Sequence record: PZ242158.1
Source: a phage
Length of the DNA stretch: 64,000 bases
Strand: one strand, 5' to 3'
Shown here: positions 20,038 to 43,589 of the stretch, piece by piece
How positions within the stretch are numbered: position 1 is the first letter of the stretch
How the letters are laid out: each line of letters starts with the position of its first letter
Translations under genes and position numbers: made by a program
The notes under the pieces: generated by a model
The model's database searches: none
Told to the model about the DNA's origin: nothing
Seen by the model: only the letters and a program-made list of their open reading frames with translations

Positions 20038-21081
20038 TTATTTAACGTGTTTGAAAATACCTGCCAACTCGGTCATTGTCATGCGGGTGGTCTTCATAAG
20101 ATCTGTCATAGCTTTCTCCATAATTGGAGATACTACCATAAAGTTACCTTTGGTGAAACCTTTATTCCAGTCGGTCACTAACAGGGGCTTAAGTCCAGCT
20201 CCGAGACGTTCACCAGTTAAAGCACAGCATTTGCGAACATACGAACTCTTAAATTGGCTGAACGACAGATCAACTTTCATACCTGCATCGTAGAACGTTT
20301 GACAATAGAAAGTGTAAGCCTTAGCAACCTCAACATCATCAGGCAGTGCAGGAACCTCTTCTGCAATCTCCTCTTCGACCTCCTGAGGCTCTTTTTCCTC
20401 TTCAGAGTTCTGTTCTCCAATTTCTTCTGTCACAGTTTCGTTTACGATGTCTGAAATGTGTTTGTTGGCTGCACGATCAGCCATGAAATTTTTAAAGTCC
20501 TGCATTGGTGACATATCTTCTTCCTCTTCGTCAAAAAGTGCTAGTTTATCTTCTTCTGTCCCGTATTGCAAGATGAAATCTTCAAAAGTATAATCACCTT
20601 TCAATTTCTCCATACGCTCTTCGCTCAGGTGAAGCATCATCTGCTGGACAATTTTTCGATCAGTTTTGTCTTTTATCAATATTGCAGTCTTTTTATCTAC
20701 CAGACAGTCTTTCAGAGCGTTGCACCTCAACCCTACCACACAACAATTGTCAATTGCGTAAGGACCTTCATCATCTATCCGCTCCAGAGATGGGTAGAAA
20801 GGATTCCCCAGCCCGTTTTCATCTGTGTGCATGTCGAAAGGTATAAGAGTATAGTCGCATACCCCCTCTCCTAAAAGTTTTTTACCAAATAGGAGGTATT
20901 CTTCCCATGACAGGTTGAACTCTATATCTCGTTTCCGTGCATTATTTTGTTTGCGTCTGTATTTTTTGAGCAGGCGCTCTAACTCTTCTGGTGTATAATA
21001 TTTTTCAAGATTCATGAGTTGTCTCTCGTGCTCTATAGGTGAAGAAATCTTATCAAGTGCCTCGACAGATGTCAACCTCAA
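20038..21081 (-). CDS. free-standing HNH-family endonuclease with acidic C-terminal extension
   Basis: SLERIDDEGPYAIDNCCVVGLRCNALK (xRID...N...N..K HNH pattern); start uncertain (alternative ATG at 21015). Confidence 0.5.
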   Translation of the reverse strand: MRLTSVEALDKISSPIEHERQLMNLEKYYTPEELERLLKKYRRKQNNARKRDIEFNLSWEEYLLFGKKLLGEGVCDYTLIPFDMHTDENGLGNPFYPSLERIDDEGPYAIDNCCVVGLRCNALKDCLVDKKTAILIKDKTDRKIVQQMMLHLSEERMEKLKGDYTFEDFILQYGTEEDKLALFDEEEEDMSPMQDFKNFMADRAANKHISDIVNETVTEEIGEQNSEEEKEPQEVEEEIAEEVPALPDDVEVAKAYTFYCQTFYDAGMKVDLSFSQFKSSYVRKCCALTGERLGAGLKPLLVTDWNKGFTKGNFMVVSPIMEKAMTDLMKTTRMTMTELAGIFKHVK

Positions 21082-21088
21082 AAACGTG

Positions 21089-21117
21089 TTGACTTTACTA
21101 TAAATCTACGATATAGT
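21089..21117 (+). promoter_or_regulatory. sigma70-like promoter for the + strand early/replication operon
   Basis: TTGACT, 17-nt spacer, TATAGT; in the divergent intergenic region. Confidence 0.5.
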
Positions 21118-21157
21118 GCACCCATTCGAAAGAAAACGAACACAGGAGCACTTAATC

Positions 21158-22057
21158 ATGGCAAATCTTAACAGCTTTAGCACTCGGTGGAAACAAGATA
21201 TCACAACCAATCTCTCAGCAGGTGATATCCTTTCTGCAATTTACGAGGCTTTGGATGATAAAGCTACTTCAAAATCGGTTTGTACCAACCCGCTAATTCC
21301 TATAGTAATGAAGGTTATTGAGCGTAGGCTGGTATCCGGATCTGATAAGTGGACATATCTGGATAATGGAGGCCACACTTACTCCAACGGCTATGTCGAT
21401 ATAAAAGTAGAATATGCGGTATCATATCGCCGGAGCGGCTCTGTAACTTTCAACTTTTCTGGAGGTTTCCGATCTCTGGCAACTTCACCTTTTGTTTCCT
21501 CAGAGGAGAGGTTTGAACTTCCGTTCCTTTGGATGATGGCTAACGCGACAGGCAAAACCCCTGTAAGCATTCGCGTAAAATACAACTACAACGGATCTAG
21601 TAAGATCTATGCCGAGAGTGTCTCAGCAAGTTTTTATTTTGTGATGGGGGATGGAATCCTCAAACATATAAAGATGTGTGATATGCATGATGTTATAAAT
21701 GAAGTGACTGATAAGAATGTTCTGGTGAAGGATCTCAACAATTTTTATACACCGGGAGACTATTACGTCAACCGTCCACTGTGCATCTTTAATGCTGCAC
21801 ACCCTTTAGGTGAGTATTTGATTGCCAATAGTGATATTGCCAATAACCGCTTCGAGGTAGCAAGAGTACAGAATGAGGTATTGACATCTTGCAAGAGCGG
21901 TGATAAGTTCACCGAAGAAGAGATGGGCGTTTTAGAAATGATGGGATATAAGTGTAGCCTTTGGGTAGATGAGGTGTTTAATGACGGCATCTATGGACAG
22001 GATATTTACCCGTTAAAGAAGTATACTGATTCCAGTTTAATTTACGCGGAGATTTGA
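21158..22057 (+). CDS. hypothetical protein
   Basis: Start moved to ATG 21158 (MANLNSF, SD ACAGGAG) because the tracked start at 21116 overlaps the promoter -10. Confidence 0.45.
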   Translation: MANLNSFSTRWKQDITTNLSAGDILSAIYEALDDKATSKSVCTNPLIPIVMKVIERRLVSGSDKWTYLDNGGHTYSNGYVDIKVEYAVSYRRSGSVTFNFSGGFRSLATSPFVSSEERFELPFLWMMANATGKTPVSIRVKYNYNGSSKIYAESVSASFYFVMGDGILKHIKMCDMHDVINEVTDKNVLVKDLNNFYTPGDYYVNRPLCIFNAAHPLGEYLIANSDIANNRFEVARVQNEVLTSCKSGDKFTEEEMGVLEMMGYKCSLWVDEVFNDGIYGQDIYPLKKYTDSSLIYAEI

Positions 22058-22332
22058 CTATGATGAAGGCATGTGGTAGTGTATACTATGTGGGTGAAAA
22101 TGTTCAGGCAGACAATGTGTGGAAATCCATTAAGTCCACCACCGATGATGCCTTCTTGAGCGGGTTATGTTTCCCCAATCCAGGGGACATCCTCCCTCAC
22201 CCTGGAGATTTTGTTGTTAACAAGATGGACGGTTATACCGTGTGCCTGATGGTTGAAAAAATCTTTTTAGACACTAGACACAATCACCGTCTTGTGTTAA
22301 AATTTCAAGAATGTAAAATGACAATTGCCTAA
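22054..22332 (+). CDS. hypothetical protein
   Basis: 92-aa ORF with 4-nt overlap to upstream gene. Confidence 0.35.
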   Translation: MTMMKACGSVYYVGENVQADNVWKSIKSTTDDAFLSGLCFPNPGDILPHPGDFVVNKMDGYTVCLMVEKIFLDTRHNHRLVLKFQECKMTIA

Positions 22333-22345
22333 GGAGGCCTTACCG

Positions 22346-22702
22346 ATGTCTAAAGCTACTTATCGTGCAGCTATTTACTGCAATGAACACCCCATCAATA
22401 ATGATGGTCACTGCCTTTTTAAAGAAAATCAGTTGGGCTGTATTGTCCTACCTGATGAAGGGAAAGGTTATCTGATTGCATTGACAGGGTTCGAGCCTGA
22501 AGCTTTGGAAGCCAATCTGGACTATCTGGTAGAAGAGGGTGCTGCAGACCTGGTTTCCAATGGCCTCGCCATAAGCCTTGACGAGGTGGAGCGCTTCATG
22601 GGCAATTACCGTGTAGTGCGTGAGTTTACTATCGAGGTGGAAACTCCAGAGTGGGGTAGCACTGAAACTAACGCCGAAGAAAAAGAAGAGGAGGCAGAAT
22701 AA
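22346..22702 (+). CDS. hypothetical acidic protein
   Basis: Start at ATG 22346 after AAGGAGG; acidic C-terminus EEKEEEAE. Confidence 0.4.
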   Translation: MSKATYRAAIYCNEHPINNDGHCLFKENQLGCIVLPDEGKGYLIALTGFEPEALEANLDYLVEEGAADLVSNGLAISLDEVERFMGNYRVVREFTIEVETPEWGSTETNAEEKEEEAE

Positions 22703-22959
22703 TGAAAGTGCAGATCTTGACTAATGCCGAGAAGATGTTTATTGAAGATACACCTTTTGAAGCTGGTGAGCTACAGTTCGTTTATTTTGTTGACTTAGAT
22801 AAGGTGTTCCCTGCACTGAATCTGGGTCTGGATGAAGTTCCTCATAAAGTTTTGTGCCAAGTTGTTCGTGCCTTAGCGGCAGATGGGGATTTCCACACCC
22901 TTGAAGATATCCAGACCTACGGGTATCTTGAACTGCAACGAGAAGAAGAGGTGGACTGA
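22702..22959 (+). CDS. hypothetical protein
   Basis: 85-aa ORF, TAATG overlap. Confidence 0.4.
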   Translation: MKVQILTNAEKMFIEDTPFEAGELQFVYFVDLDKVFPALNLGLDEVPHKVLCQVVRALAADGDFHTLEDIQTYGYLELQREEEVD

Positions 22960-22961
22960 TA

Positions 22962-23342
22962 ATGGCCCGGTGGAAGACAACAGTTGACCTTCATGATCAG
23001 TGGTTAGGACGCATCGCTGAAGACGGGAAACTAGTAGAGTGGGACAATAAGCATGTTAGCGAGTTGGCAAGCATTGTGGCTGGCAAGTTACGCTCCAAGT
23101 TCCCTGAACAACTGGATCCTGATAGTTCAAAGTTCGATCCTGAGTTGGAGGATGTTGTATACTACTTCGATACCGTGGATGACTACGATGCGTGGTTTGC
23201 AGCACGGGAGCTTTACCCACAAGGCTCTGCTATGCGCCAGATGGAAGAAGATTATCCTCCGTGTGAGCAATTCAATAGTGCAATGACTTGCCTCTATGAT
23301 TGGGCAGATAAGAACCTTGTCTGGATTCGGACTGCATTTTAG
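22962..23342 (+). CDS. hypothetical protein
   Basis: 126-aa ORF. Confidence 0.4.
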   Translation: MARWKTTVDLHDQWLGRIAEDGKLVEWDNKHVSELASIVAGKLRSKFPEQLDPDSSKFDPELEDVVYYFDTVDDYDAWFAARELYPQGSAMRQMEEDYPPCEQFNSAMTCLYDWADKNLVWIRTAF

Positions 23343-23386
23343 TGGGCAGTAATGGCGGCAAGGATGCTGCTTAAGGAGTAGTAGAG

Positions 23387-23656
23387 ATGTTATACCAGCA
23401 ATATGAACTTCGTGCAGAAAAAGAGTTAAATTTTGACAAAGATATTCACAGATATTATTATGGGAAAGTTAGAGGGCAAGCAAGAAAGTGTACTCCAACA
23501 CTCTTTTATGCCAGCAGACGACTAGCGCCAGAAGAGGCAACAGCAGAAAGGGTTGCGTTCAACTGGAAAGTCACGTATAATATTGACAGATCCGATGTGA
23601 TATCTGTTTTGGAAAACTTTGAAAACACTTACACACAAGTAGAGGACTTTTACTAA
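23387..23656 (+). CDS. hypothetical protein
   Basis: 89-aa ORF, SD AAGGAG. Confidence 0.4.
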   Translation: MLYQQYELRAEKELNFDKDIHRYYYGKVRGQARKCTPTLFYASRRLAPEEATAERVAFNWKVTYNIDRSDVISVLENFENTYTQVEDFY

Positions 23657-24840
23657 TGTCAAGAAACGTATTCGAAAGTGGTCAAATCACTGTCCGTGAG
23701 TTGCCAGCTATTATTCAGTTTGCCCAACGTCATAGCCGATCTGTCCTAATTTTGGGACCAATGGGTGTGGGTAAAAGCCAGGTGATGAAGCAGATCGCTG
23801 ATAATATGTTCGGTGAGCGAGATGACAACCTTGTTGACGTGCGACTGTCAGATAAAGATCCTGCCGACTTATCTGGGCTACCTATCCCTGTAGAAGCGGA
23901 TGGAACTACACGTACAGTGTTTGCAATTCCAGAATTTTGGCCTGCGGATCCTGACTGGAGCGGAATTATCTTTCTGGATGAGCTCACTCATGCAGATAAC
24001 TACCTGCAAAAGGTTGCAATGCAAATTATGCTTGACCACAAGTGCGGCACCTATGCATTCCCTAAGGGTTCTGTTTTTGTGGCTGCGGGTAACCGTTCTA
24101 CAGATGGTGCGGTTCTTTCGGCGCTCGAAGCCCCTCTGGCTAACCGTTTTATCATTGTAGAGGTTACAAGCAATGCAGAGGTGTTTATTGAGGACTACGC
24201 ATTCCTCAACGGGGTTCACTCCTCTGTAATTGGGTATCTGAAAAGAGTTCCATCAGCTATTGATAATTATGAGGCTATGGCTGAGATTAATTGTCCATCT
24301 TTTGCCACACCACGATCTTGGGTTGCTGCATCTGACATCTTGCACGATTTTGACAGCGGTATTATTTCTGACGCTATGGCCCGTGTTCTTCTACAAGGTG
24401 CTATTGGTCACACTGCAGCGGTAGAGATCTGGACTTACCACACCAAGAAACGTAATTTACCGGAAATCGGTCGGATTATGGCAGGTGGCTGCAAAGAATA
24501 CGTAGGTCCTAAGCAGCCAGACATTTTGTGGATTCTTGGATCTGAAGGTTGTATCGCTATTCGCAATATGATGGAAAATGCAAGTATCTCAGACGAAGAT
24601 CTTGTCAGCTGCGTGGCAAACTTCCTCGATTTCCTTTGGGAAAACTTCAAGGACGAGAACCGAGATTTTGTATTCTCAGTCTTTATGGCGATGATGAAAC
24701 CTAATGCCTTAGGAAATGCCTTGCTTATCGGTAAAGGGCGTGACAAGATTGTTGCTCAGCTGATCAAAGCATACCCAAACCTGATGAAGATTGTAAAAGA
24801 GTTTGGTGAAGAGTTTAGCGCCATTTTGGCTAAAGCTTAA
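23656..24840 (+). CDS. AAA+ ATPase, MoxR/AAA_5 type (CobS-like)
   Basis: Walker A LILGPMGVGKSQ, Walker B IIFLDELTHA; about 390 aa as expected for MoxR-type ATPases. Confidence 0.6.
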   Translation: MSRNVFESGQITVRELPAIIQFAQRHSRSVLILGPMGVGKSQVMKQIADNMFGERDDNLVDVRLSDKDPADLSGLPIPVEADGTTRTVFAIPEFWPADPDWSGIIFLDELTHADNYLQKVAMQIMLDHKCGTYAFPKGSVFVAAGNRSTDGAVLSALEAPLANRFIIVEVTSNAEVFIEDYAFLNGVHSSVIGYLKRVPSAIDNYEAMAEINCPSFATPRSWVAASDILHDFDSGIISDAMARVLLQGAIGHTAAVEIWTYHTKKRNLPEIGRIMAGGCKEYVGPKQPDILWILGSEGCIAIRNMMENASISDEDLVSCVANFLDFLWENFKDENRDFVFSVFMAMMKPNALGNALLIGKGRDKIVAQLIKAYPNLMKIVKEFGEEFSAILAKA

Positions 24841-24850
24841 GGGGGGTTGT

Positions 24851-25231
24851 ATGGCTAAAGTAGGTAAGCGGGGAAACTACCTGGTGGTATTGACCGAGGA
24901 GCCGGAGAAGGAGTACGAATGCAGCTCCACTTGCGTGATCGATATCCGAGAAAAAGATGTAGATGAAGTCTGGTTTAAAATATTGGACGCTTGCGATAGC
25001 AGTGATTATTTCTTCATTTATGTCAACGATAAGGCTGGATTCTTCCATGACGACGGAGAGTTGCCGTATGAAATCTATGAACTTGTAGAGGCTTGCCATC
25101 GTGGAGATGCGGAGTTGTTTGGCCTACGGCTGAAAAGCGGTAAATTCTTCTATCAAGATGAGTGCATAAATCTTCATAACTTTGTAGAGGGAACTTGCAA
25201 CGATGGAGAGATTTTGGCACACTACGATTAA
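24851..25231 (+). CDS. hypothetical protein
   Basis: Start chosen at ATG 24851 preceded by GGGGGG SD (track start 24803 overlaps upstream gene). Confidence 0.4.
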   Translation: MAKVGKRGNYLVVLTEEPEKEYECSSTCVIDIREKDVDEVWFKILDACDSSDYFFIYVNDKAGFFHDDGELPYEIYELVEACHRGDAELFGLRLKSGKFFYQDECINLHNFVEGTCNDGEILAHYD

Positions 25232-25244
25232 TTTCTAAGACCTC

Positions 25245-25271
25245 CCCCGCTTCGGCGGGGATTTTCTATTT
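25245..25271 (+). terminator. intrinsic terminator
   Basis: CCCCGC-ttcg-GCGGGG (6-bp stem) followed by ATTTTCTATTT. Confidence 0.6.
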
Positions 25272-25280
25272 GGAGTTATT

Positions 25281-27760: not shown

Positions 27761-27770
27761 GGAGACAGTT

Positions 27771-30684: not shown

Positions 30685-30744
30685 TAAGATGTGAGTATAA
30701 AGGGGAGGCACTCCTCCCCACAAAAACTAAGGAAGCACTAAACG

Positions 30745-31047
30745 ATGAAACGTTATAAACCATACACTTTTGAAATCGATTTCGAACTTGACGATATGTT
30801 TACTGTGGAAGCTCAGGCAGTTGTCCAGTTGCCAGACTCGGAGTGCCGTGACTCTGATGTTGACTATTACGGGTTTAGACAAATTACCGATGTGCGTGTT
30901 TACCACAACGGTGAAGAGGTGGACTTCCACCAACTGCCAAACGATATGCGCCACTCAATTTACAAACGTGCAGCCCGTGAACTAGAGTCCTATCTGGATG
31001 CAGCGACGACAGCAGCTGCATTTGCTGAAGAAGTGGGAGGTTTCTGA
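30745..31047 (+). CDS. hypothetical protein
   Basis: 100-aa ORF, SD AAGGAAG. Confidence 0.4.
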   Translation: MKRYKPYTFEIDFELDDMFTVEAQAVVQLPDSECRDSDVDYYGFRQITDVRVYHNGEEVDFHQLPNDMRHSIYKRAARELESYLDAATTAAAFAEEVGGF

Positions 31048-31442: not shown

Positions 31443-31454
31443 GGAGAAGGTGGT

Positions 31455-31970: not shown

Positions 31971-31988
31971 GCATTAGGAGACAGCAAA

Positions 31989-34821: not shown

Positions 34822-34879
34822 TGTTTAACAAAGAGTGGGAGGGGTAGTACAACCGCCTCCCCTTTAAGGAGAACTGTAT

Positions 34880-37303
34880 ATGAGCATGTGGTCGTTCGAT
34901 TTTGAGTCATCCGGTTTGCTGGAAGACCCAGATCTTTATTATCACTGCGGCCTGTTTAAAGAGCTGAATAAGAACCGTTTTATGCTGTTCCTTCCTCTGA
35001 ATGACCGCACACACTACTCCGAGGAGGATATAGAGAAGGCCAAGAACTTTATTCTGGCAAAGAAAACTCTTTATAAGGATTTTGAAGTTCGCATAGCAGA
35101 TTTTTCGGAGTTGGAAGGTTGGCTTACAGGAAATTCCGACTGGTCACCAACAGCTTTGAACTGCCATAACTGCTACAGTTATGACTTTATGCTGATGGAG
35201 AGATTATCCGGTATTCATTTTGATATGTTCCGTGATCCTAAATGCATGGGGACTATCAACGACCACCAGGTTAACCTGTTTGATACGTTGGCTATGAGCC
35301 GAATCTTGTGGCCTGATCGCCCTTTACCAAAAGGTTGTCCGGACGCTGTATTCAACCCGGTTACTAAGAAAATGCAACCTGTTGGTCCTCACGGCCTTAT
35401 GGCATGGGGCTACGCCCTTGGTAACCAGAAAGTTCAAATTGATGACTGGCGCGATCTTCCGCTGTGGAAATATGTGGATCGTGTGTTCGAGGACGTTATC
35501 ATCCAGGAGTTGCTCTGGAAAGAGTTGGTAGCGGAATCAAAAGGTGTATTCTACGGCAAATCTGACATGCAGAACTTTATGTATGACCCTGCCAAAGAGA
35601 AGCCTAAAGGATTCAAGAAGATTACCTGGAAGAATGCATTACGCCGAGGCATGCTGCAGCATTTCCTGATGGAGCTGCAGGCTCGACAGGGTGTGTATTT
35701 CGACATAGATGGGGCTATTGCTTTACGTGACCGCTGCGATGCGTGGATGAAAGAGATCGCTGATCGTGTTGAACCACAACTTCCTTTAAAAGAGTTATCA
35801 ATGTCTCAGCGGCCTAAGTTCCCTGAAAAGCCGTTTAACCAGGATGGGACAATCTCCAATAATGGTTGGAAATGGTTAAAAGACAAGCTTGGCTACCCTG
35901 TGGACATGAGTGCTTTAGAATTCAAAGCTCCTCCTAAGCGAGCATTTACCTCCACAGGAGATGTCAGTAAGATGGGGATAAAATGGTGTGAAGAGATGGG
36001 CTGTAAAGACCCTGACAAGATGGCGGATTTCTTGAGGGGCTATATCAAGGGCACCTCCACACCACAACCTTTACCTAAAGAGCTAATGGATCAGGCAATA
36101 AGTGATCTACAGCAGAAGCGAATGCCTGACTGCAAGATACCTATGAAAATCAGTAATCAGGACGATATTAAGCGATACCTGATCAGTGCTGGTTGGCTTC
36201 CGACAATGTGGAGAACTAAGGATGTAACTAAAGACAGCAAGAAGAAAGCTCTACCTGATGCAGATGTTGATGCACGAGTGTATGCATATATGGACGAGCT
36301 TTTAGAGTCAGAGTATTGTGACCTAATTATCAACTTCTGGAACAAAACTGATGCTAAGTTCCAGACAACCGTGCACAAGTTCCGAAGCTTTCCTAACTCC
36401 GAAAGGATTAAAAAGGAAGTATTCGGGAAAATACGTAGAAAAGCTAGGGCACTTATTACTTCTCCGCAACTGAAAGATACGTTTGGACACCTATGCCCGA
36501 ATCTTGAAAAATTGAACGGAGAGATGGCTAAAGATATCGTCTTGTGGTTATCATTGCGAAACCGCAGATCGGTCCTTGATCCAATCAAGGAGGATAAGGT
36601 TGATACTGGTCTTCTTAATCACCCACGTTTGAAGATTGACCATAAGCTTCCTGCTAAAAGTTCTGGATTAACAAACACTTCCCGACAGAAACACAGTATT
36701 TGTGCAAACATGCCTAAACCATCTCCTAAAGTGGTTATGGGTAAAGAGATGCGTAGTCTGTGGGGTGTTCCTCCAGGATACTTTGAGATCGGTATTGACG
36801 GGTCCAACTTAGAGCAGCTTATCGGGGCTTGGGGTGCCTTTGAGTTCGACAACGGCCTGTATTACGATGTTGTAAGTAACGGGGACGCACACCAAAACAA
36901 TGCTGAGGCATATACAAAAGTAGCAGGTAGAGAGGTGTCTCGTAACGACGGTAAACCTATCACGTATGGGGTTATGTATGGGGCACAAAAAGATAAAGTT
37001 GCAGATATGCTGGACATCTCTCCAGAGTTGGGACAAAGGGTAATCGATGCACTCTGGGATGCCAACCCTGGTCTTAAGGGGCGTAAAGAAGATCTGGAGA
37101 AATTCTGGGAAGCAACGGGTAAGAAGTTTATCTACTCTTTTGATGGTCATGCTATCTGGACCCGATCTAAACACTCTTTACTTAATGCATACCAACAAAA
37201 TGGCGGCGCATCGTTGTGTGACTTAGTTGGGATACTCATGCACCATCAAATGGTGAAGCGTGGGTGGTACGATGAAGGTGTTCGTCGTATTATCTATTAC
37301 CAT
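34880..37303 (+). CDS. family A DNA polymerase, exon 1 (3'-5' exonuclease plus polymerase motifs A and B)
   Basis: Exo I FDFESSG; motif A EIGIDGSNLEQL; motif B RNDGKPITYGVMYG; frame ends ...RIIYYH just before motif C, then K and stop inside the intron. Confidence 0.8.
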
Positions 37304-38145
37304 AAATAACATTGTGGCTTCGTGCAGTGATGCACGTCGAAAACCTCTTTAATTGACGGGAAGGCTAAGTTGACTTTTACACCTAAACATGGTAAAAGCT
37401 CAATATGCTAATCCGCAGCGAAGACTAAAGGGGTGTAGTTAAAATGGCTAGATCAGTTGATTATCACGGATATACCGTGTTTGATGATGGAACAATACCT
37501 TTATCGAAACGTGATCATACAACAATGTTTTGTTTTGATAATGGTCGAGGTTACCTTTGCGTAACCATGTTCATCGAGGGGAAGCAGTGCACAAAAGGTG
37601 TCCACCACTTGGTTGCTGAATGCTTTGTATCAAACCCTGATCCTGAAAGGCTCACATGGGTGAACCATAAGGACGGAAACAAATACAACAATGCATACTG
37701 GAACCTTGAATGGACCACCCCTGGTGGAAATATCAAACACGCTTATGATAATGACCTCAGAGTAAGGCCAGTCGGTGAGTATAATGCCAACGCTGTACTG
37801 ACCGAGGATGAGGTAACGGAGATTTGCGAACTGTTACAGAGTGGTCTACGACAATGCGAGATTAGGGATCTTGGGTATCCTTATGAGACGGTCAGAGCCA
37901 TAAAGCAAAGAAGACAGTGGAAACATATCTCTAAAAACTACACCTGGTAGTAACGTTCAGAGACTATCGAAAGCATAGCGCCAACATAAATTGGTGCGAA
38001 GAAGCGAGTAGAGTAGGCCAGCAAGTGCGGTCGAAATGGGAGGTGCCTTGGTAACAAGGTAGTGAGATAGTCCGATCCATACAGGAAACTGTATGGCTGT
38101 GCACGTAATGGTGCGGGGTAGCTTAACGACCTACCTGAACTATTG
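37304..38145 (+). mobile_element. group I self-splicing intron (842 nt) carrying an HNH homing endonuclease
   Basis: Conserved P (aattgacgggaagg, 37341), Q (aatccgcagc, 37400), R (gttcagagacta, 37955) and S (agatagtcc, 38065) elements; 5' exon ends in U, intron ends in G at 38145; splice joins YYH to DEYQLQV. Confidence 0.75.
37444..37950 (+). CDS. intron-encoded HNH homing endonuclease
   Basis: VNHKDGNKYNNAYWNLEWTT (HNH_3-type motif); own SD AAAGGGG; lies between the Q and R elements. Confidence 0.7.
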   Translation: MARSVDYHGYTVFDDGTIPLSKRDHTTMFCFDNGRGYLCVTMFIEGKQCTKGVHHLVAECFVSNPDPERLTWVNHKDGNKYNNAYWNLEWTTPGGNIKHAYDNDLRVRPVGEYNANAVLTEDEVTEICELLQSGLRQCEIRDLGYPYETVRAIKQRRQWKHISKNYTW

Positions 38146-38499
38146 GATGAGTACCAACTTCAGGTCCCTGACACACCTAAGTATAAGACTGTGTACACCT
38201 TCGACACAATTGAAGAATTGGAAGCATTTAAGGCAGAGCAGGAGGCCAAACTTCATGTGTTCGACGGTCATAAGTACAAAAAGGCACGCAAGGATGAAAA
38301 CGGAAACGAAGTGGTTGACAGAGACGGAAACACGGTGTACGATCCTATCCTGAACGATGACGGAAAGCTTGAACTTATCTGGAGCCCTGTGGGTGAAATG
38401 GTGGTGCATTGCTTCTGGCAAGCTTCTAAAATGATGGGAGTCCCGTTCCAGATCACAGGTGAATACTTGTGTGGTCGTAACTGGGGTGATTGTCACTAA
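38146..38499 (+). CDS. family A DNA polymerase, exon 2 (motif C and C-terminus)
   Basis: Frame opens at 38122, no ATG/SD; begins DEYQLQV (completes the HDE motif C) and ends GRNWGDCH with the C-terminal His conserved in Pol A enzymes. Confidence 0.6.
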   Translation, partial: DEYQLQVPDTPKYKTVYTFDTIEELEAFKAEQEAKLHVFDGHKYKKARKDENGNEVVDRDGNTVYDPILNDDGKLELIWSPVGEMVVHCFWQASKMMGVPFQITGEYLCGRNWGDCH

Positions 38500-38866
38500 T
38501 GTAAACTATCAACACATGGAAGTGTTGTTGAGCAAAGAGGAGACTTTTATGGTAGTAGAACCAACAAAAACATTTACATCCATGACTATCCCTGTTATTA
38601 TGCAGGTGGAGTGTGTTCAGGTATCTCAAGTGTGGCCAGGCACTAAAATCCCAACAGGGCCTGATTTCTTTCAGGTTGGGAAAGTGTACAATGTCTGGAA
38701 AGCACCAGATTGTCACCCTTTCATTAAAGAGAAGGCACCAAATTGCTACCCTTTCATCAAAGATGACCGTGGAATGCTGTGGTATCTTGGAAATGACTTG
38801 ACACTGCACCTTGGGAATGCTATTATTGCAGTATTCAGACTTAACAAGAAGGAGACTGATCAATGA
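38459..38866 (+). CDS. hypothetical protein
   Basis: 135-aa ORF overlapping the end of polymerase exon 2; start uncertain. Confidence 0.35.
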   Translation: MNTCVVVTGVIVTNVNYQHMEVLLSKEETFMVVEPTKTFTSMTIPVIMQVECVQVSQVWPGTKIPTGPDFFQVGKVYNVWKAPDCHPFIKEKAPNCYPFIKDDRGMLWYLGNDLTLHLGNAIIAVFRLNKKETDQ

Positions 38867-39090
38867 CGACTTTGGTTAAAGCTACCTTTGTAGAAGAAAA
38901 GATGACAGACCTGTCATTCTTTAAAGAAGGAAAGACCTACGAGGTTTATTACGATAAAGCTCGTGCAAACAAAATGATTAAAGACGAGGAAGGGGTTGCC
39001 TGGTATATCTCTCACCTGGCAAACGGTGAGTATCATATCTACGGAACCACTTTGCTTGCCAAGTTTGTAGTTGTTGAAGAGGACCTATGA
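38863..39090 (+). CDS. hypothetical protein
   Basis: 75-aa ORF, 4-nt overlap. Confidence 0.4.
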   Translation: MTTLVKATFVEEKMTDLSFFKEGKTYEVYYDKARANKMIKDEEGVAWYISHLANGEYHIYGTTLLAKFVVVEEDL

Positions 39091-39281
39091 AAGTAAAGTA
39101 TCTGGCTGAGGGTATGAGTAGGTATTTCACCCTTGGTGAAGAATATTGGCCCTTTACAAGCAACGGCGATGTCTACGTGAAAGATAATTTCGGCACGCCG
39201 TGGTTTCTGCACCCTAATGGGCTGGGATACTCCATTTACTGCGGTGCAGTGAACAACACAACACTTGCAGAGTTTGTATAG
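39087..39281 (+). CDS. hypothetical protein
   Basis: 64-aa ORF, 4-nt overlap. Confidence 0.4.
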   Translation: MKVKYLAEGMSRYFTLGEEYWPFTSNGDVYVKDNFGTPWFLHPNGLGYSIYCGAVNNTTLAEFV

Positions 39282-39291
39282 AGGAGGTAGA

Positions 39292-39663
39292 ATGTTAGTA
39301 AAAGGTACCCACACAGTCAAACAACGTATTGAAGTTGAGATTGATGACTGCGAGCTGAAGCATATTTTACGGTCATGCTCCAACGTTTTGCTCCTTAGCA
39401 TTCTTCAGGAGCGAGCAGAGAACGAGTTCTTAAATGCACTGGCAGGCCGTCCTGGTGACTTCTGTGTGCGTAAGCGTGGTGACAACAAGTCATGGCTGTG
39501 GGAAATCGATGCCGACTGGGATTACCACAAAAATGAGGGTATAGATGAGCCTATTCGTGAATTGACAGACAAAGAGGTTCAGACGTACAATGAAGTTTGT
39601 CATTGGGCAACACGCCAACAAATCTACCTCGACCCTGTGTGGCTGATTGAAAATAGCCATTGA
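39292..39663 (+). CDS. hypothetical protein
   Basis: Start at ATG 39292 after GAGGAGG. Confidence 0.4.
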   Translation: MLVKGTHTVKQRIEVEIDDCELKHILRSCSNVLLLSILQERAENEFLNALAGRPGDFCVRKRGDNKSWLWEIDADWDYHKNEGIDEPIRELTDKEVQTYNEVCHWATRQQIYLDPVWLIENSH

Positions 39664-39739
39664 CAAGAAGTAAGATTAGATATAAGATGCTTCACACAAA
39701 CAGAGCGTTGATTTTTAAATAACTAAGGAGACTGCCAAG

Positions 39740-39994
39740 ATGAAAATTACTTTGAAGCCAGAATGCGTTGCAAATGACCGAGCTTTTAAAGATTGCACAG
39801 TCGGTGCAATTTATGAAGCAGAGTTTTGTGAGAACCCTCTGGTAAAAGCCCTTCTGGAAGAAGGGGCCCCTTTATCACAAGAAGAGATTGATGAGCTGGA
39901 AAACTCAGCACAGTGCCTTACCTTTAAAGATGACGAAGGAGACTCTGTCTGGTGCACTGTTAATGAAGTAGTTTTTGTAAAACCTGAACATTAA
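39740..39994 (+). CDS. hypothetical protein
   Basis: 84-aa ORF, SD AAGGAG. Confidence 0.4.
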   Translation: MKITLKPECVANDRAFKDCTVGAIYEAEFCENPLVKALLEEGAPLSQEEIDELENSAQCLTFKDDEGDSVWCTVNEVVFVKPEH

Positions 39995-40057
39995 TACTTG
40001 ACAACAGTGATGGGGCCTAATATAATGGCCCTATCAAAACGAAAGGGGACCACAGCA

Positions 40058-40330
40058 ATGACCAAACAATATCAACGAATTAAAGCCAAGGTTAAGCCAG
40101 ACTATCTGGAAAAGGACTCTGCTTTTCGGGACTGCACAGCTGACAAAGTTTACACAGGGGCCGTCCTGCTGAACGATGAATTTGAAGTATATGTTCTGGG
40201 TAAAGAGGCCACTATTAAGGACGACCAAGGAGATTATGTTTGCTGCACCACACGTGAGCTAGAAATCTTAGAATACTTCGGTGAAATCTTCACCTCTCTT
40301 GATGATTACTTAGACGACGAGGAAGCGTGA
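40058..40330 (+). CDS. hypothetical protein
   Basis: Start at ATG 40058 after AAAGGGGA; resembles the 39740 product (KDC/RDCT...EVYVLGKEA pattern), possible paralog. Confidence 0.35.
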   Translation: MTKQYQRIKAKVKPDYLEKDSAFRDCTADKVYTGAVLLNDEFEVYVLGKEATIKDDQGDYVCCTTRELEILEYFGEIFTSLDDYLDDEEA

Positions 40331-40719
40331 TGAAAAATATTTGGGATATTGATATCTTTGAAGCCTCTAAGCTTGACGGTGCTGATGGAGTGATTATGGT
40401 GTCTGATGGCAAGGCAACACTAACTTCAGGAGATATCATCTATGCCTTGGACGAGCTGGCGCTTCTGAAATCTACCGGTAACACTTTAGAGGAGCGTCTT
40501 CAAGGCTTCGCCTTCAAAGAAGGCACAAATACAGCCATGATGTGCACCACACGGACAGTTCAGGTGGGTAACGGTGTCTATATGATCATTGCTGTGTGTC
40601 CTAAATTCAGCAACGTCAACAAAGATGATGCTGACGCTGTCAACGATGTGGTTGTTCTCTTCGTGGGTGACGCTATGGCAGACCTGATGAATGCAGGAGA
40701 AGCGGCAAATGAAGACTGA
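40327..40719 (+). CDS. hypothetical protein
   Basis: 130-aa ORF. Confidence 0.4.
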   Translation: MMKNIWDIDIFEASKLDGADGVIMVSDGKATLTSGDIIYALDELALLKSTGNTLEERLQGFAFKEGTNTAMMCTTRTVQVGNGVYMIIAVCPKFSNVNKDDADAVNDVVVLFVGDAMADLMNAGEAANED

Positions 40720-41011
40720 AAACATTACCCCAGCAGGGTTCTTAAAAGTATACCGTGAACTGCTATATACTACAGAGGACAGTGTTCTAGAGTATCCAGA
40801 ATATCTTTTGCTGTATAAGTATCTACAGGAAGCTGGTGAAAATCTGCCAGTTAGTGCAGAAGGCGGTCCGAACTGGGTATACAGCGCATGGAGAAAGGTT
40901 GGCATTCTCCCAGATCCAGGTAAAGATATGGTAGTTTGGCAGCTTATCAACAACATCGGGATTCCAATCTTTGATGAAGCTGTTAAAATCTATTTTGAAC
41001 TTGACGATTAA
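40709..41011 (+). CDS. hypothetical protein
   Basis: Start at ATG 40709 after GCAGGAGAAG. Confidence 0.35.
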   Translation: MKTENITPAGFLKVYRELLYTTEDSVLEYPEYLLLYKYLQEAGENLPVSAEGGPNWVYSAWRKVGILPDPGKDMVVWQLINNIGIPIFDEAVKIYFELDD

Positions 41012-41028
41012 TATCAGGAGACCTTAAG

Positions 41029-41274
41029 ATGACTGAAGTAGTTGCTCGCGCAGGACAGAAAGTACGTTGTGTTGAAGTAGGTTTTGGTGGCAAAGGGTGT
41101 CAAAACTTGACTCAAGGTAAGGAATACGCTGTTATTTCTGGTGGTGGCGACGAAAGTATTGTGTTCGAGGGCCACATCCTGGATGCTGAAAACTTTGAAA
41201 TCTTTGACGACGATGGGGATCCGATCACCTGCCTGCTGGACGGGAATTGGGGAACTTTTGAAGTGATTGGCTAA
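41029..41274 (+). CDS. hypothetical protein
   Basis: 81-aa ORF, SD CAGGAGA. Confidence 0.4.
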   Translation: MTEVVARAGQKVRCVEVGFGGKGCQNLTQGKEYAVISGGGDESIVFEGHILDAENFEIFDDDGDPITCLLDGNWGTFEVIG

Positions 41275-41357
41275 CAAATATCTATTGTAATTTACAGAAG
41301 GGGATGCTAAAATAGTGTCTCCTTCTATGTTGTTCAAATAAAATCGGAGATTCCATA

Positions 41358-41723
41358 ATGGAACAAATGAACGATCAAGCGTCGGTTGCGATGAACGAGC
41401 AAGAACAACCTCAAGAATTTTTCTTAGGGTTAAGTAAAGATCAAGTGTCTCTTCTGCTAGTGCTTTCTTCTTTCATGGGAAGACTTCAGGAGCTTACACA
41501 ACAGCCAGAGGCTGAACAATTATTTCAGGCTCTGCGCGAAGAAGAAAAATATCGTCGTTTGGACTATGCCTTAGGTTGGGTAGCTCAACAACGAGATATG
41601 CTGATGGCTCTCTCTGGGACCACAAGTTTTGCAATGGGCCTGTTGGCTCAAGTTCAGGACAAATTAATTCAGGCAGGGTTTGCACACACGGCGAACACTA
41701 ACGAAGAACAAGGAGACAAATAA
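41358..41723 (+). CDS. hypothetical protein
   Basis: 121-aa ORF, SD ATCGGAGA. Confidence 0.4.
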   Translation: MEQMNDQASVAMNEQEQPQEFFLGLSKDQVSLLLVLSSFMGRLQELTQQPEAEQLFQALREEEKYRRLDYALGWVAQQRDMLMALSGTTSFAMGLLAQVQDKLIQAGFAHTANTNEEQGDK

Positions 41724-42994
41724 TGAGCGTTATTCAACAATTCGCTAACCCGATGAATCCGCGTGAAACTGTTTTACTGGCTCACGGCATGATTAAACGT
41801 GTCAGCATCAAACCTATCAAAGGTGCTGATCCTACAACAGGTATTAAAACCACTGTGTGGCAAGGTAAGAAAATTGAATCCAGCCACACCATCTCTTTAC
41901 TGATTTCTGAACTGGATTCCTCTGATAACCTGCTTCAAGGTGGTGAAGAAGTTTGGATCAGTATGGGTGATAAGCTGCTTAAACCTGGTCATCAAGACTC
42001 TGTCTCTGTTAAAATTGATGACAAGTGGGAAACCGTAACGCCGGGATGGATCGTAAATATCCCTTTGAAGGCAAACGAGCATAACGGTAAGACCTATTAC
42101 AAAGGCTCACTGGCTAAGATGGTCAAACTGGGTGCAGGAGAGGCTCCAGCAGCGACTCAGCAGCAAAAACAGCAACAAGGTGCACAATCACAAGGTCAGA
42201 AGCAGAAACCCCAGCAGAATGCCAATCAGGACGTTTTACGCATCTATGGGGATGTGACTCAGATTGTTGGCAACGTGGTTACTGTAAATGACCACAAGAT
42301 TGGCGAAGGTGCTATGGTTGTAACTGATGAGCAGCTTAAAGACCTGGTGGTAGGTGGTCGTGTTGCAGCCATTGTTGACAAAGACACCGGAAACATTATC
42401 AGTGGTTTCAAAGCCTATCCACCTAAGGCAGAGAACGGCACTCAAGGCTCTGGTGGCAAGCGTAAATCCTCTTACGACCCTATTGGTGTAGAGACGGGGC
42501 ATAGCATCAATGCTTTGCAGATCATCCTGGATCGCGGGTTTAAGGTGGATGACCCACTAAGCGTGGCTAAAACACTGCACGTAGTCACCATTGAGCTTAA
42601 GAAAGAGTATGCTCAAGCCACCAACCGAACTGAAGATGAAGTAGGTGCCAGTGTCGGTAATGCGGTGTTGAACGCTTGTCGCCGTATTGACAAGAAAACG
42701 AAAGTTGATGATTTTGCAGCGGCAATTACTGCAGAAGCAAAAGATGTCTTGACTAATCTGGCTGAGCCGTTGTACGATTGGATCAAGAACGGTGCTGAGT
42801 CCACTGACCATCAAGAACCTCAAGCTGCCAAACAGGAAGCCGCTCCACAGCAAAACACTGTAGACGCTCCTCCTGTAAATGATGAGGAAGATGACCCGAT
42901 GGGTCAGAATCCGGCGCAGTATGACTTCTGTGATGACATACCTTTCGCTCCGGTAGGTTTGCAATATGGCAAAAGTAGAATCCACGCATTGTAA
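41723..42994 (+). CDS. hypothetical protein, possible single-stranded DNA-binding protein
   Basis: 423 aa; central Gln-rich linker [20 protein letters not shown]; acidic tail with ...YDFCDDIPF; in replication module; assignment speculative. Confidence 0.3.
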
Positions 42995-43589
42995 GAGGTG
43001 CATCAAGTGCGGAGAGGTGAAAGACCTCTCCGAGTTCTACAAACACCCAAAGATGTCTGACGGTCATCTTAATAAGTGCAAAGAGTGTTGCAAGAAGGCC
43101 AGCAGGGAGGCTGACCAATTTTCCCACGACTCTTCAGAAAAAGGTGTAATACGCGTGCTGTACAAGGCTCAAAAGTGCAACAGCAAGCAAAGAGGTCACC
43201 CGCCTCCGACTTACACCAAAAAAGAGTTTAAGGAGTGGCTATACCTAAACGGTTACAAAGAGTTGTATGATCAGTGGGTAGCCAGCGGATACGACAAAAG
43301 GAAAAAGCCTTCTTGTGACAGGATAGATGATTTCAAAGGGTACTCTTTTGATAATATCCGTTTAACGACTTGGGGAGAAAATAAAGACAAGCAGACAGAG
43401 GATATTCTGTTGCATAGAAGCACCAGCGGTAGACGGTGTAAAAATGTAAGGAGGCTGGACATGAATGGCAACGTTCTTAAAGAATGGGTATCCCACAATT
43501 CTTGTAGAAGAGAAACCGGAATATGTGTTGATTACTACATTCATGAAAAAATTCCAGCCCCAGATGGATACCTCTATGAATACTTTTAG
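42966..43589 (+). CDS. free-standing HNH endonuclease with N-terminal zinc ribbon
   Basis: Cys4 cluster CKRCIKCG...CKECCK; HNH motif [23 protein letters not shown]. Confidence 0.6.

Follow-up and report, generated by a model that had tools for sequence, protein, structure and literature searches.

I-HmuI and I-HmuII are HNH endonucleases of the Bacillus phages SPO1 and SP82, encoded in group I introns that interrupt the DNA polymerase genes. Other phage endonucleases, such as SegG, MobE and SegB, are free-standing and engage in "intronless homing", in which they cut an adjacent gene; SegG lies next to gene 32 in T4. The T4 gene srd is an early gene. PacI (PDB 3ldy/3m7k; group 20 of the His-Me finger classification) is a homodimeric restriction enzyme of 142 aa. 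For SegB, free-standing homing is documented (PMC2330249), and T4 Srd has been reported to bind RNase E and to speed up host mRNA decay (PMC13232886). Certrevirus phage CB7 belongs to the Vequintavirinae, the same subfamily as the phage analysed here, but to a different genus. Its HNH-bearing DNA polymerase introns were shown to splice and many free-standing HNH genes are present, whereas the sections of the CB7 paper used here contain no analysis of insertion sites, targets or active-site type (PMC7344957).

Here we analysed a 64-kb stretch of DNA (the window) from a Vequintavirus (rV5-like) infecting E. coli, for which an earlier note had claimed three HNH endonuclease genes and active homing-endonuclease traffic. 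The three ORFs flagged as HNH were all confirmed (20038-21081, 37444-37950 and 42966-43589), and a regex search in six frames found no further HNH-, GIY-YIG- or LAGLIDADG-like ORF in the 64 kb. Identity as a mobile endonuclease held up for 37444-37950 and 42966-43589, not for 20038-21081. Comparative genomics, which the note had suggested for finding presence/absence polymorphisms, revealed such polymorphism at the polymerase intron and at 42966-43589; the traffic is thus borne out for two of the three genes, whereas 20038-21081 is fixed and homologous to T4 Srd. We consider it likely that the region comprises three His-Me-finger (HNH-superfamily) genes of three kinds: an intronic HNH gene, a free-standing homing endonuclease gene associated with an SSB tail, and a fixed Srd-like gene.

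Group I intron of the DNA polymerase gene

The polymerase locus is composed of the following features:

34880..37303, + strand: exon 1 of the DNA polymerase (family A), ending ...RRIIYYH
37304..38145, + strand: group I intron of 842 nt, between His808 and Asp809 in polymerase motif C (YYH/DEYQ)
37444..37950, + strand: I-HmuI-like HNH endonuclease gene within the intron, 168 aa
38146..38499, + strand: exon 2 of the DNA polymerase, starting DEYQLQVP...

The assignment of 37444..37950 as an intron-encoded HNH gene was confirmed by its canonical HNH motif (NHKDGNKYNN..NLEW), the Rfam group I match of the surrounding sequence and a clean in-frame polymerase after excision. The protein also matches phrog_59, and I-HmuI (1u3e) at E=4.5e-6. 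The intron scores 40.5 bits against Rfam group I (E=1.5e-8, over 37294-38095), whereas its ORF-less copies in relatives reach 73.7 and 64.7 bits and exceed the gathering score (50). Excising 37304-38145 in frame yields a 925-aa polymerase that is 1-2 residues off the uninterrupted polymerases of DrSchubert and JohannBauhin. The intron itself is 100% identical to that of phage WalterGehring. According to the Rfam alignment, the HNH ORF fills the loop of a peripheral hairpin in the P6 region. In the ORF-less introns a short stem-loop closes the same hairpin, and its stems covary (CATCC/GGATG vs CGCTC/GAGCG).

Among roughly 120 close relatives, the polymerase site occurs in four states: without intron (52 records), with either of two ORF-less introns (about 25 and 4), or with intron plus HNH gene (33). 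The insertion site is identical in all intron versions, and the commonest intron-less allele carries five synonymous changes at +3 to +18 of this site. Substitutions concentrate beside the insertion site here as well as beside that of the 42966-43589 element. Taken together, the sequence comparisons point to a mobile group I intron and to its HNH gene as a genuine mobile element. The intron would splice out of the polymerase mRNA, as shown by RT-PCR for polymerase introns of a related phage (PMC7344957). In mixed infections the HNH protein would cut or nick intron-less alleles, and repair of these alleles would then copy the intron in.

Free-standing endonuclease next to an SSB-type tail

The second locus lies in a replication module:

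41723..42994, + strand: gene of the replication module whose product has an acidic C-terminal tip of the SSB type (phrog_4477; no Pfam match)
42947..43592, + strand: inserted endonuclease element of about 646 nt, which replaces the upstream stop codon and ends just before the terminator
42966..43589, + strand: putative free-standing PacI-type His-Me-finger homing endonuclease gene, 207 aa
43605..43626, + strand: intrinsic terminator hairpin GCCCTGCCCGAAAGGGTGGGGC followed by a T run

The upstream gene had been described as a putative SSB gene. Its product does not match the SSB Pfam model, but in endonuclease-less relatives the 408-aa protein ends with ...FDDDIPF*, the tip of E. coli SSB. In the window the stop codon is lost (codon 408 ends at 42946) and 15 residues are added after ...CDDIPF. 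The upstream ORF extended in this way and the beginning of the endonuclease gene overlap by 29 nt. Since the terminator is common to endonuclease-plus and endonuclease-minus genomes, the endonuclease gene is co-transcribed with the upstream gene, and its translation is probably coupled to the latter.

Of 117 relatives, 51 carry the endonuclease gene, which occurs in two N-terminal variants, and about 56% lack it; its boundaries, marked by the stop codon on one side and the terminator on the other, are clean. Even a pair of phages of the same species differs, SYGMH1 having and FV3 lacking it. Sites that separate plus from minus genomes were found only at or within 25 nt of the two ends of the element, and in endonuclease-plus alleles substitutions are concentrated in the tail codons. 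Such clustering fits the earlier proposal that the free-standing copies cut in or near their neighbours, as far as 42966-43589 is concerned; the fixed and syntenic 20038-21081 does not conform to it. Judged by distribution and boundaries, the view of 42966-43589 as a real mobile homing-endonuclease element is supported.

The protein has an N-terminal Cys4 cluster (C12, C15, C38, C41), predicted to form a zinc ribbon, and the catalytic motif D118-R119...Y126...N130...N139 without a catalytic His; the D, R, Y and N residues are conserved in the family. The family profile matches I-HmuI at E=0.0048 and PacI at E=0.0065. No Pfam model was matched by the window's own protein; 12 of 31 family members match I-HmuI_NUMOD-like, and by family homology the C-terminal domain would thus be NUMOD/I-HmuI-like. 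In a PacI-type active site, Asp and Asn would bind the metal and Tyr would act as base in place of His (PMC5714182, PMC4081073); nuclease activity is proposed by analogy with PacI.

Many GenBank records of relatives annotate this gene as endonuclease VII, which would make it a housekeeping Holliday-junction resolvase of packaging or repair instead of a selfish element. It matches phrog_1035 "endonuclease VII" at E=2.6e-41 and shares the superfamily and the N-terminal CxxC pairs combined with a His-Me finger with T4 endonuclease VII (Pfam Endonuclease_7). However, the phage gene product lacks the Pfam match and the catalytic His and carries a homing-type DNA-binding tail, and the gene is dispensable among relatives, which renders this identity very improbable.

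In unrelated phages, too, close homologues lie behind genes whose non-homologous products end in the SSB tip …DDxIPF. In IMG/VR, an acidic ...[IVL]PF tail was found 40-120 nt upstream at 12 of 12 loci with an endonuclease at least 46% identical, although these include related contigs and represent only about 7-10 independent contexts. Considering all 60 loci retrieved from IMG/VR, a sample biased by its selection with a pattern on the conserved catalytic motif, the tail is upstream in 16/60 cases vs 0/60 and 1/60 in two controls; most distant homologues (≤45% identity) are not behind such tails. The upstream genes encode canonical SSB (PF00436), DUF736, ResIII helicase, DnaB-like primase-helicase or unknown proteins, and several of the loci have displaced stop codons. 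At 10 of 18 loci, second copies of "CCN TTY stop" were detected beside the endonuclease (4.4 per kb vs 0.17 per kb elsewhere in the loci); an exact second copy of the tail codons was not found in the Vequintavirus loci. The constant position of the close homologues behind SSB-tip genes makes the tail-coding DNA a likely target: the endonuclease would home to DNA encoding the SSB-type tip plus stop codon in endonuclease-less genomes, in JohannBauhin or RudolfGeigy the putative sequence ...GATGATGACATCCCATTCTAA.... As the same short peptide ends many unrelated replication proteins, this endonuclease subfamily could move between non-homologous genes and unrelated phages.

This raises the question if the endonuclease instead adjoins SSB-tail genes as a working partner, e.g. 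as a tip-recruited nuclease or recombination accessory, without the tail DNA being a homing target. Several contexts are indeed recombination modules (RecT-YqaJ-SSB, ERF), in which accessory nucleases are common, and co-transcription together with the start/stop overlap suggests coupled expression. On the other hand, there is no homology among the upstream genes, some of which encode helicases, the endonuclease is dispensable in close relatives, and at several loci the stop is displaced and the tip capped, by which a tip-dependent interaction would be destroyed. The second PF-stop remnants beside the element and the substitutions concentrated in the tail codons of plus alleles also speak against a partnership, which we regard as unlikely; we favour the tail DNA as homing target.

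Srd-like early gene

The remaining gene is transcribed from the opposite strand:

20038..21015, - strand: early gene of the Srd family, encoding 325 aa when started at ATG 21015 (TTG 21081 in the ORF as listed)
21047..21075, - strand: sigma-70-like promoter with extended -10 (TTGACA-17-TGnTAAGAT), inside the TTG-start ORF; it would drive the Srd-like gene

The promoter is near the sigma-70 consensus, and the BASEL records examined annotate the gene as 978 nt. Because of this annotation and the position of the promoter inside the 5' extension, ATG 21015 is probably the start rather than TTG 21081. A PacI-like His-Me finger makes up the N-terminal domain (E99-R100-I-D-D...Y107...N111...N120, counted from TTG), and all PacI-equivalent residues are invariant; residues 184-243 form an acidic, low-confidence linker, followed by a C-terminal domain that is a degenerate second copy. 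In a profile comparison (hhalign), the family's N-terminal domain matched T4 Srd with 94.9%, E=4.7e-8 and 28% identity over 124 columns, including LERFDNNVGYIKGN vs LERIDDEGPYAIDN. T4 Srd is reported as an RNase E activator and also bears the older label "anti-sigma factor / decoy of sigma-70". No literature linking Srd and HNH was matched in the literature searched.

Could all three genes, this one included, be active as mobile homing endonucleases and cut the genes beside them? The invariant His-Me finger, a distant kinship with the 42966 family (hhalign 80%, E=1.4e-5) and the HNH endonuclease label in some records would agree with it. Yet 117 of 119 relatives align across the gene without a break, and no indel touched it in pairwise comparisons. 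In Salmonella phage PVP-SE1, of a different genus, its homologue (about 46% identity) keeps the position beside the DUF2201 gene, as it does in another divergent contig. Furthermore, it comes first behind a strong early-type promoter. Fixed and syntenic distribution combined with T4 Srd homology rules out a mobile endonuclease and indicates a core early gene; that all three genes are mobile is hardly credible. Only this gene is fixed at the same position in relatives, a pattern that the earlier note had named as speaking against its reading of all three. The protein is an orthologue-like relative of T4 Srd and may have an Srd-like function.

Fixation alone is compatible with nuclease activity, which the protein may possess. 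It could be a working anti-host nuclease and not an RNase E activator, serving e.g. in host DNA degradation, a role that has been proposed for viral PacI homologues. We see this as possible but clearly the less probable option, as T4 Srd, the one homologue that has been characterised, is reported to bind RNase E (PMC13232886) and the first metal ligand is Glu, not Asp.

Comparison with known systems

Like I-HmuI, the intron ORF of the window encodes a canonical HNH protein (NHKDGNK..NN..NL.W) in the loop of a group I intron in a family A DNA polymerase gene. Unlike in I-HmuI, the host phage is a Vequintavirus of E. coli, the sequence differs, the C-terminal region did not align with that of I-HmuI, and insertion is at the HDE of motif C. 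PacI has two Cys4 zinc sites and no NUMOD-like domain, whereas the 42966-43589 protein has one Cys4 and a C-terminal DNA-binding module, and its gene behaves as a mobile one. The Srd-like protein differs from PacI in having no conserved Cys4 and in its second, degenerate domain.

With the phage endonucleases of intronless homing (T4 SegG by gene 32, MobE, SegB), 42966-43589 shares its stand-alone position between genes, sporadic occurrence in close relatives and substitutions clustered beside the insertion. In contrast to the T4 elements, it is a PacI-type His-Me finger and not a GIY-YIG or classical HNH enzyme, and it seems to target a short peptide-coding motif at the very 3' end, common to non-homologous genes. 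Such a target would let the element change its host gene, for which we know of no description among T4 elements.

The 20038 gene and T4 srd are both non-mobile, and its location behind an early-type promoter is akin to the early T4 gene. The proteins differ in that the one encoded in the window is longer (325 aa vs 248 aa in T4 Srd) and has both an acidic linker and a second, degenerate domain.

Endonuclease-like genes of an rV5-like phage

The 5 kb around the polymerase gene matched 123 phage records, nearly all from Escherichia Vequintavirus (rV5-like), with up to 98.6% identity. According to the annotation of relatives in the BASEL phage collection, the surrounding genes constitute a replication module (MoxR ATPase, rIIA/B, helicase, Dcm methyltransferase, primase/helicase and DNA polymerase). 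Because the window is closely related to many sequenced and annotated phages, comparative tests are strong. The earlier note had described three HNH endonuclease genes, and all three ORFs were found where it had placed them:

37444-37950 (+), ORF of an HNH endonuclease within an intron of the DNA polymerase gene
42966-43589 (+), free-standing endonuclease gene
20038-21015 (-), Srd-like gene, previously listed to 21081

The assignment of all three to the HNH family holds for the intronic ORF, which has a weak Pfam match (HNH_3, 17.7 bits, below the cutoff), whereas the other two lack a Pfam match even at E=10. With permissive thresholds, Pfam and NCBIfam returned nothing for these two proteins or for the SSB-like neighbour (41723-42994) located 5' of the free-standing gene. 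PHROGs labels the 20038 gene as "HNH endonuclease" (phrog_3118) and the 42966 gene as "endonuclease VII" (phrog_1035). A six-frame motif scan of the 64 kb revealed no additional HNH-, GIY-YIG- or LAGLIDADG-like ORF.

Active homing traffic had been proposed for all three genes. Presence/absence polymorphism among relatives bears this out for the intron with its HNH gene and for the 42966 gene, both of which are mobile, but not for the 20038 gene, a fixed look-alike. The observation is thus confirmed in part and its interpretation supported in part. The general point is right, yet not new, because both mobile genes ("putative homing endonuclease") and the joined polymerase CDS are already annotated in BASEL records, and such infestation is documented.

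When the whole region from 18.8 to 56 kb was compared with two relatives, the indels of more than 300 nt were the insertion bearing the free-standing endonuclease, the intron, an extra endonuclease gene, a methyltransferase gene and a stretch of about 360 nt. The methyltransferase segment (1333 nt, putative N6-adenine methyltransferase) is found in RudolfGeigy and WalterGehring between ORFs of 113 and 100 aa; the window is without it at about 30739-30748, a further presence/absence polymorphism of the replication module. The extra gene, a putative homing endonuclease of about 735 nt, lies in WalterGehring (17376-18151 of L004) between the primase/helicase gene and the start of the polymerase, i.e. 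at the 5' end of the latter, and by annotation also in FFH2 and Mangalyan; the window has 45 nt at this place (34875-34919). The stretch of about 360 nt (54299-54662 in the window) has no counterpart in RudolfGeigy. Sixteen "Campylobacter phage" records (MG0656xx, host C. jejuni) were 90-99% identical to E. coli Vequintavirus in all regions tested, and their host attribution looks doubtful.

A group I intron in the DNA polymerase gene

In the relatives DrSchubert and JohannBauhin the polymerase gene is an uninterrupted 2778 nt. Joining 34880-37303 to 38146-38499 of the window restores exactly 2778 nt (925 aa), with a product differing by 2 residues from that of DrSchubert and by 1 from that of JohannBauhin, and no alternative join reproduces the junction CCAT/GATGAG. 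The intron therefore comprises 37304-38145 (842 nt). It is inserted between His808 and Asp809 (YYH/DEYQ), which we take to be the HDE of motif C of family A polymerases.

In E-value mode, Rfam detected a group I intron in the window at 37294-38095 (40.5 bits, E=1.5e-8). At the gathering threshold (50) no intron was reported for the window, so that E-value mode and ORF-less relatives were needed; the score stays below this threshold because of the ORF, which appears in the Rfam alignment as a 510-nt insertion within a peripheral hairpin. ORF-less introns at the same site exceed it (JEP1, 73.7 bits; RudolfGeigy, 64.7 bits), and outside the ORF the JEP1 and window intron cores differ at a handful of positions. 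The Rfam scores together with the in-frame excision are decisive for a group I intron. By analogy, the window intron is a putative self-splicer: in the related phage CB7, splicing of the polymerase introns was seen by RT-PCR (PMC7344957). The intronic ORF carries an HNH motif with the catalytic His and two Asn (WVNHKDGNKYNNAYWNLEWTTPGGN) in the canonical form NHKDGNKYNN...NLEW, and matches phrog_59 (E=9e-38) and I-HmuI (E=4.5e-6).

All intron states share one insertion site, and the window intron is 100% identical to that of WalterGehring. The alleles were counted in the phage collection, since scans of IMG/VR for intron-less and intron-bearing junctions gave 0-2 contigs, too few for this purpose.

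Junction alleles of the DNA polymerase gene in the phage collection
Intron with ORF: 33 records, including Av-05 (another genus, 71.5% identity)
ORF-less intron of 328 nt (e.g. JEP1): 4 records
Divergent ORF-less intron of 276 nt (e.g. RudolfGeigy, rV5): about 25 records
Intron-less junction: 52 records

In the ORF-less forms, a short stem-loop caps the hairpin that otherwise holds the ORF, and its pairing differs in a compensatory manner (CATCC...GGATG versus CGCTC...GAGCG). The intron-less allele of the DrSchubert type shows five synonymous changes at +3, +6, +9, +12 and +18 from the insertion site, where about 0.5 would be expected in 18 nt given 73 differences per 2778 nt overall. Judged from identity classes in an evenly spaced sample, this allele or a close variant occurs in about 24 of 34 intron-less records, and about five have the exon sequence of intron-bearing phages. 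The cluster of changes is compatible with a nearby target that the intronic HNH enzyme may cleave or nick, and the alleles would fit a typical mobile intron, some empty sites being resistant and others susceptible.

An 86-aa ORF at 38093-38353 overlaps the 3' end of the intron and exon 2 in another frame and matches phrog_31536 end to end; this PHROG appears to have been built from mis-called ORFs at the intron boundary.

The free-standing endonuclease is carried by a mobile element

At least 80% of the region 41700-44100 was covered in only 51 of 117 relatives; about 66 lack some 640 nt matching the 42966-43589 gene. The two states can occur within one species, SYGMH1 having the gene and FV3 being without it. 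Alignment of five, then twelve, genomes with (plus) or without (minus) the insertion placed the boundaries of the element at 42947-43592 (about 646 nt), between codon 408 of the upstream gene, which ends at 42946, and a terminator. In minus genomes the upstream gene ends CAG TAC GCC TTT GAT GAT GAC ATC CCA TTC TAA (...QYAFDDDIPF-stop; in JohannBauhin and RudolfGeigy within ...GATGATGACATCCCATTCTAACATATAG...), and the terminator hairpin follows about 15 nt after the TAA. In the window the element replaces this TAA, and therefore the upstream ORF continues for 15 codons and overlaps the endonuclease start by 29 nt, so that its product ends ...DFCDDIPF plus 15 extra residues. The same loss of the stop after ...DDIPF, with 15 added residues (42944-42994 in the window), is seen in DrSchubert, JEP1, rV5_ev158 and SYGMH1. 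A second variant of the element (WalterGehring, HeinrichReichert) encodes different N-terminal 45 residues and keeps the stop directly after IPF.

Among 313 variable sites in 3.2 kb, plus and minus genomes were separated only by 42924, 42928, 43589 and 43592, none of them more than 25 nt away from an end of the element. Between the window and JohannBauhin, divergence is about 2.7% elsewhere but reaches 7 of 30 nt at the very end of the upstream gene. These patterns suggest that the 42966-43589 gene encodes a mobile homing endonuclease, with cleavage and over-inheritance being putative.

A PacI-type active site

The family alignment of the free-standing endonuclease (31 sequences, 32-91% identical) has invariant C12, C15, C38, C41, P115, S116, R119, Y126, N139 and R182, and D118, D122 and N130 are nearly invariant. 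The catalytic motif aligns residue for residue, and with identical spacing, with VDRSDSFEGYSPQNARLACFICN of PacI, a His-Me-finger restriction enzyme. PacI lacks the canonical His; its metal is held by Asp and Asn, and an omega-loop Tyr has been proposed as base or nucleophile (PMC5714182, PMC4081073). The window sequence alone gave a weak match to PacI in a PDB search (E=0.18); the family profile matched PacI at E=0.0065 and I-HmuI at E=0.0048, the latter from the HNH core through the C-terminal domain. In this C-terminal part, 12 of the 31 members have the Pfam domain I-HmuI_NUMOD-like and 6 have NUMOD1; the window copy is below threshold but aligns throughout.

The label "endonuclease VII" can be rejected, since there is no Pfam match at E<=10 and Arg takes the place of His in the H-x-D-H motif. 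A housekeeping role like that of T4 endonuclease VII is likewise rejected, as the gene is absent from about 56% of relatives.

An exhaustive profile search found 1,833 representatives (50%-identity clusters) at E<=1e-30 and 8,319 at E<=1e-10; the family is therefore large, and its catalytic domain lies outside all Pfam models. Those members with about 300 aa were considered as SSB-endonuclease fusions, but turned out to have either different N-terminal domains or nuclease domains in tandem. For example, P0170 and P0176 (about 300 aa) have two tandem PacI-like nuclease domains, which recalls the pair of an intact and a degenerate domain in the Srd-like protein.

Association with SSB-type tails

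The upstream gene had been taken for a putative SSB gene. Its product ends in an SSB-type acidic tip (...DDDIPF) in minus relatives, but lacks the OB-fold SSB domain (PF00436) and any Pfam, NCBIfam or PDB sequence match. Similar tips precede homologues of the endonuclease elsewhere. In a Proteus lambdoid prophage, a 48%-identical homologue follows RecT-YqaJ-SSB (PF00436), with the SSB ending DWDDQEIPF-stop. In a Vibrio phage, the homologue is preceded by a small protein (itself after ERF) ending DTEIPF-stop, and in two more contexts by an SSB (PF00436) with a damaged tail and by a 161-aa protein ending LLDDIPF-stop. A ResIII/DEAD helicase ending ...SDEDIPF plus 24 extra residues precedes the 53%-identical homologue of a 113-kb phage contig, on which "ATT CCA TTT TAA" (I-P-F-stop) is found just 3' of the endonuclease. 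A distant Vequintavirus-like contig (L022) has a 76%-identical homologue in the same arrangement as the window, including the extension (APIGLQYGRSRIYAL).

For a systematic test we retrieved, by a catalytic-motif pattern, 65 IMG/VR loci encoding relatives, 60 of them with at least 350 nt upstream. Of the 60 loci, 16 encode an acidic ...[IVLM]PF peptide in the 350 nt upstream and on the same strand, as compared to none in an equal-sized downstream window and one on the reverse strand. Where the endonuclease was at least 46% identical to that of the window, the peptide occurred in all 12 loci (perhaps 7-10 independent contexts), 40-120 nt upstream; for more distant homologues it was seen in 4 of 48. 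The identifiable upstream proteins were canonical SSB, DUF736 and a DnaB-like primase-helicase. Since these belong to differing families, it is the tail that is shared, not common ancestry. Several loci have displaced stops (IPF+S, IPF+NEVQ, IPF+AYIGLS..., VPF+APIGLQ...), and in 10 of 18 a second "CCN TTY stop" lies between tail and endonuclease or just after the endonuclease, at a density of 4.4 per kb versus 0.17 per kb in the remainder of these loci.

According to our proposal, this subfamily would recognise the DNA of tip and stop, approximately GAN GAN ATH CCN TTY TRR, and insert there, so that the conserved peptide would supply a conserved target across unrelated genes. In E. coli SSB, partner binding needs a free C-terminal Phe; with the stop lost and 15 residues appended, the window variant may therefore cap the SSB-type tip.

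Among these upstream proteins, the ResIII/DEAD helicase (1141-2976 of L020) and the DnaB-like primase-helicase (L049) are encoded on unrelated phage contigs, each with an SSB-like acidic ...D(I/V)PF tail directly upstream of the endonuclease homologue. Such tails are either common on phage replisome proteins or have spread through co-conversion with the element.

The gene at 20038-21015 belongs to the Srd family

In 117 of 119 relatives, the 3.6 kb around this gene form a single alignment (90-99.8% identity), the two exceptions apparently being short fragment records. That it could be a recently immobilised endonuclease was rejected, as no relative shows an indel. Full-length homologues (40-46% identity) occur in genomes of the Seunavirus and Cronobacter phage type. 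In Salmonella phage PVP-SE1 (GU070616.1), as in the window, the gene comes first beside a divergent intergenic region, and it is followed by the DUF2201 metallopeptidase/VWA gene, an arrangement also found in another divergent contig. The gene is thus core and syntenic, as defined by its fixed presence and kept neighbourhood. On the same strand (-), a sigma-70 promoter of near-consensus sequence, its -10 of the extended type, is located at 21075-21047; the likely start is therefore the ATG at 21015 (325 aa), in agreement with BASEL annotations.

The adjacent gene at 18544-20025 (DUF2201_N + DUF2201, metallopeptidase/VWA-like) is likewise named "HNH endonuclease" in PHROGs (phrog_1314) and in RefSeq rV5-like records. 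Neither an HNH motif nor a match is present, and the label looks like annotation drift.

The alignment of the Srd-like family shows an invariant E-R-I-(D-D)...Y...N...N...K-D block; E99-R100...Y107...N111...N120 are invariant in 19 homologues, and the residues equivalent to those of PacI are all conserved, so that this protein and T4 Srd may still cut nucleic acid. A C-terminal second copy of the domain is degenerate and has lost Arg and Tyr. Against PDB, the single sequence gave nothing useful and the A1 profile only a chance-level match. Compared with each other, the Srd-like and free-standing endonuclease families align at E=1.4e-5 (hhalign, 80%). The link to Srd, a host-takeover protein of T4, is clearer (hhalign 94.9%, E=4.7e-8, 28% identity over 124 columns), with LERFDNNVGYIKGN...YN of T4 Srd aligned to LERIDDEGPYAIDN...CN of the Srd-like family. 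The gene also matches the PHROG families of the T4 "Srd anti-sigma factor" and "decoy of sigma-70" (phrog_1400, E=1.9e-9; phrog_4592, E=5e-14). T4 srd itself (2040-2786 of L014) carries the PacI-type motif.

According to Qi et al. 2015 (cited in PMC13232886), T4 Srd binds RNase E in its N-terminal half and stimulates the decay of host RNA, a function known for T4 Srd alone. On the basis of syntenic core position, promoter, and homology to T4 Srd with its function, we assign the gene to the Srd family and regard it as an early gene of host takeover whose product has a PacI-like fold; by analogy, an RNase E-linked role in host takeover is predicted.

Implications and comparison with known systems

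As a whole, the finding is ordinary for this phage group, since infestation of large coliphages, including Vequintavirinae, by homing endonucleases is documented. Intron boundaries and gene conversion by homing endonucleases come up in the BASEL paper (PMC8594841), the rV5 paper reports terminase introns only (PMC3606486), and 23 homing-endonuclease genes are described for the Certrevirus CB7 (PMC7344957). The limited collection of literature searched contained no description of an SSB-tail association of such endonucleases and no paper naming Srd together with HNH. As far as we know, no description exists of a PacI-type chemistry in the free-standing family, of its apparent specialisation for SSB tails or of the place of T4 Srd in the same fold.

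Taken together, we give about an even chance to a joint reading in which the 42966-43589 gene belongs to a large PacI-type (Tyr-based) homing family that includes a subfamily homing to SSB-tip DNA (...DDxIPF-stop), T4 Srd and its Vequintavirinae counterparts being domesticated members of the same fold. Such a subfamily would jump among non-homologous replication genes (SSB, helicase, primase-helicase, DUF736) of unrelated phages, and insertion would often remove the stop and thereby cap the tip, a binding site of replisome partners. Close relatives of the free-standing gene follow a nine-codon SSB-tip motif, not a homologous gene. If true, a selfish element uses a conserved protein-interaction motif as a portable landing site, which would also give it a route to alter that motif. 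We regard the tail-targeting Tyr-type family as a moderately novel lead, and the Srd assignment as a useful re-annotation: T4 Srd has long been known from host takeover, and its apparent nature as a PacI-like His-Me finger offers a hypothesis on its mode of action. Annotation needs correcting, as each of the names "endonuclease VII", "anti-sigma factor" and "HNH endonuclease" misleads here, and caution is advisable when these loci enter phage phylogenies.

With regard to known enzymes, the intronic gene resembles the I-HmuI type in its sporadic presence at one conserved site among close relatives. The free-standing endonuclease falls into the PacI-like His-Me fingers (group 20, Jablonska et al. 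2017), PacI having the nearest beta-beta-alpha-metal fold; it shares with the Srd-like family the lack of a catalytic His, the omega-loop Tyr and the metal ligands (Asp/Asn, with E99 of the Srd-like family in the place of D118), and it would combine this active site with a homing-type DNA-binding tail. PacI has two Cys4 zinc sites per subunit, whereas the Srd-like family has no conserved Cys4 and the free-standing endonuclease has one (C12, C15, C38, C41). In the latter, a zinc ribbon is followed by the PacI-type nuclease and, judged from family members, probably by a NUMOD-like DNA-binding domain, which would be the layout of a homing endonuclease.
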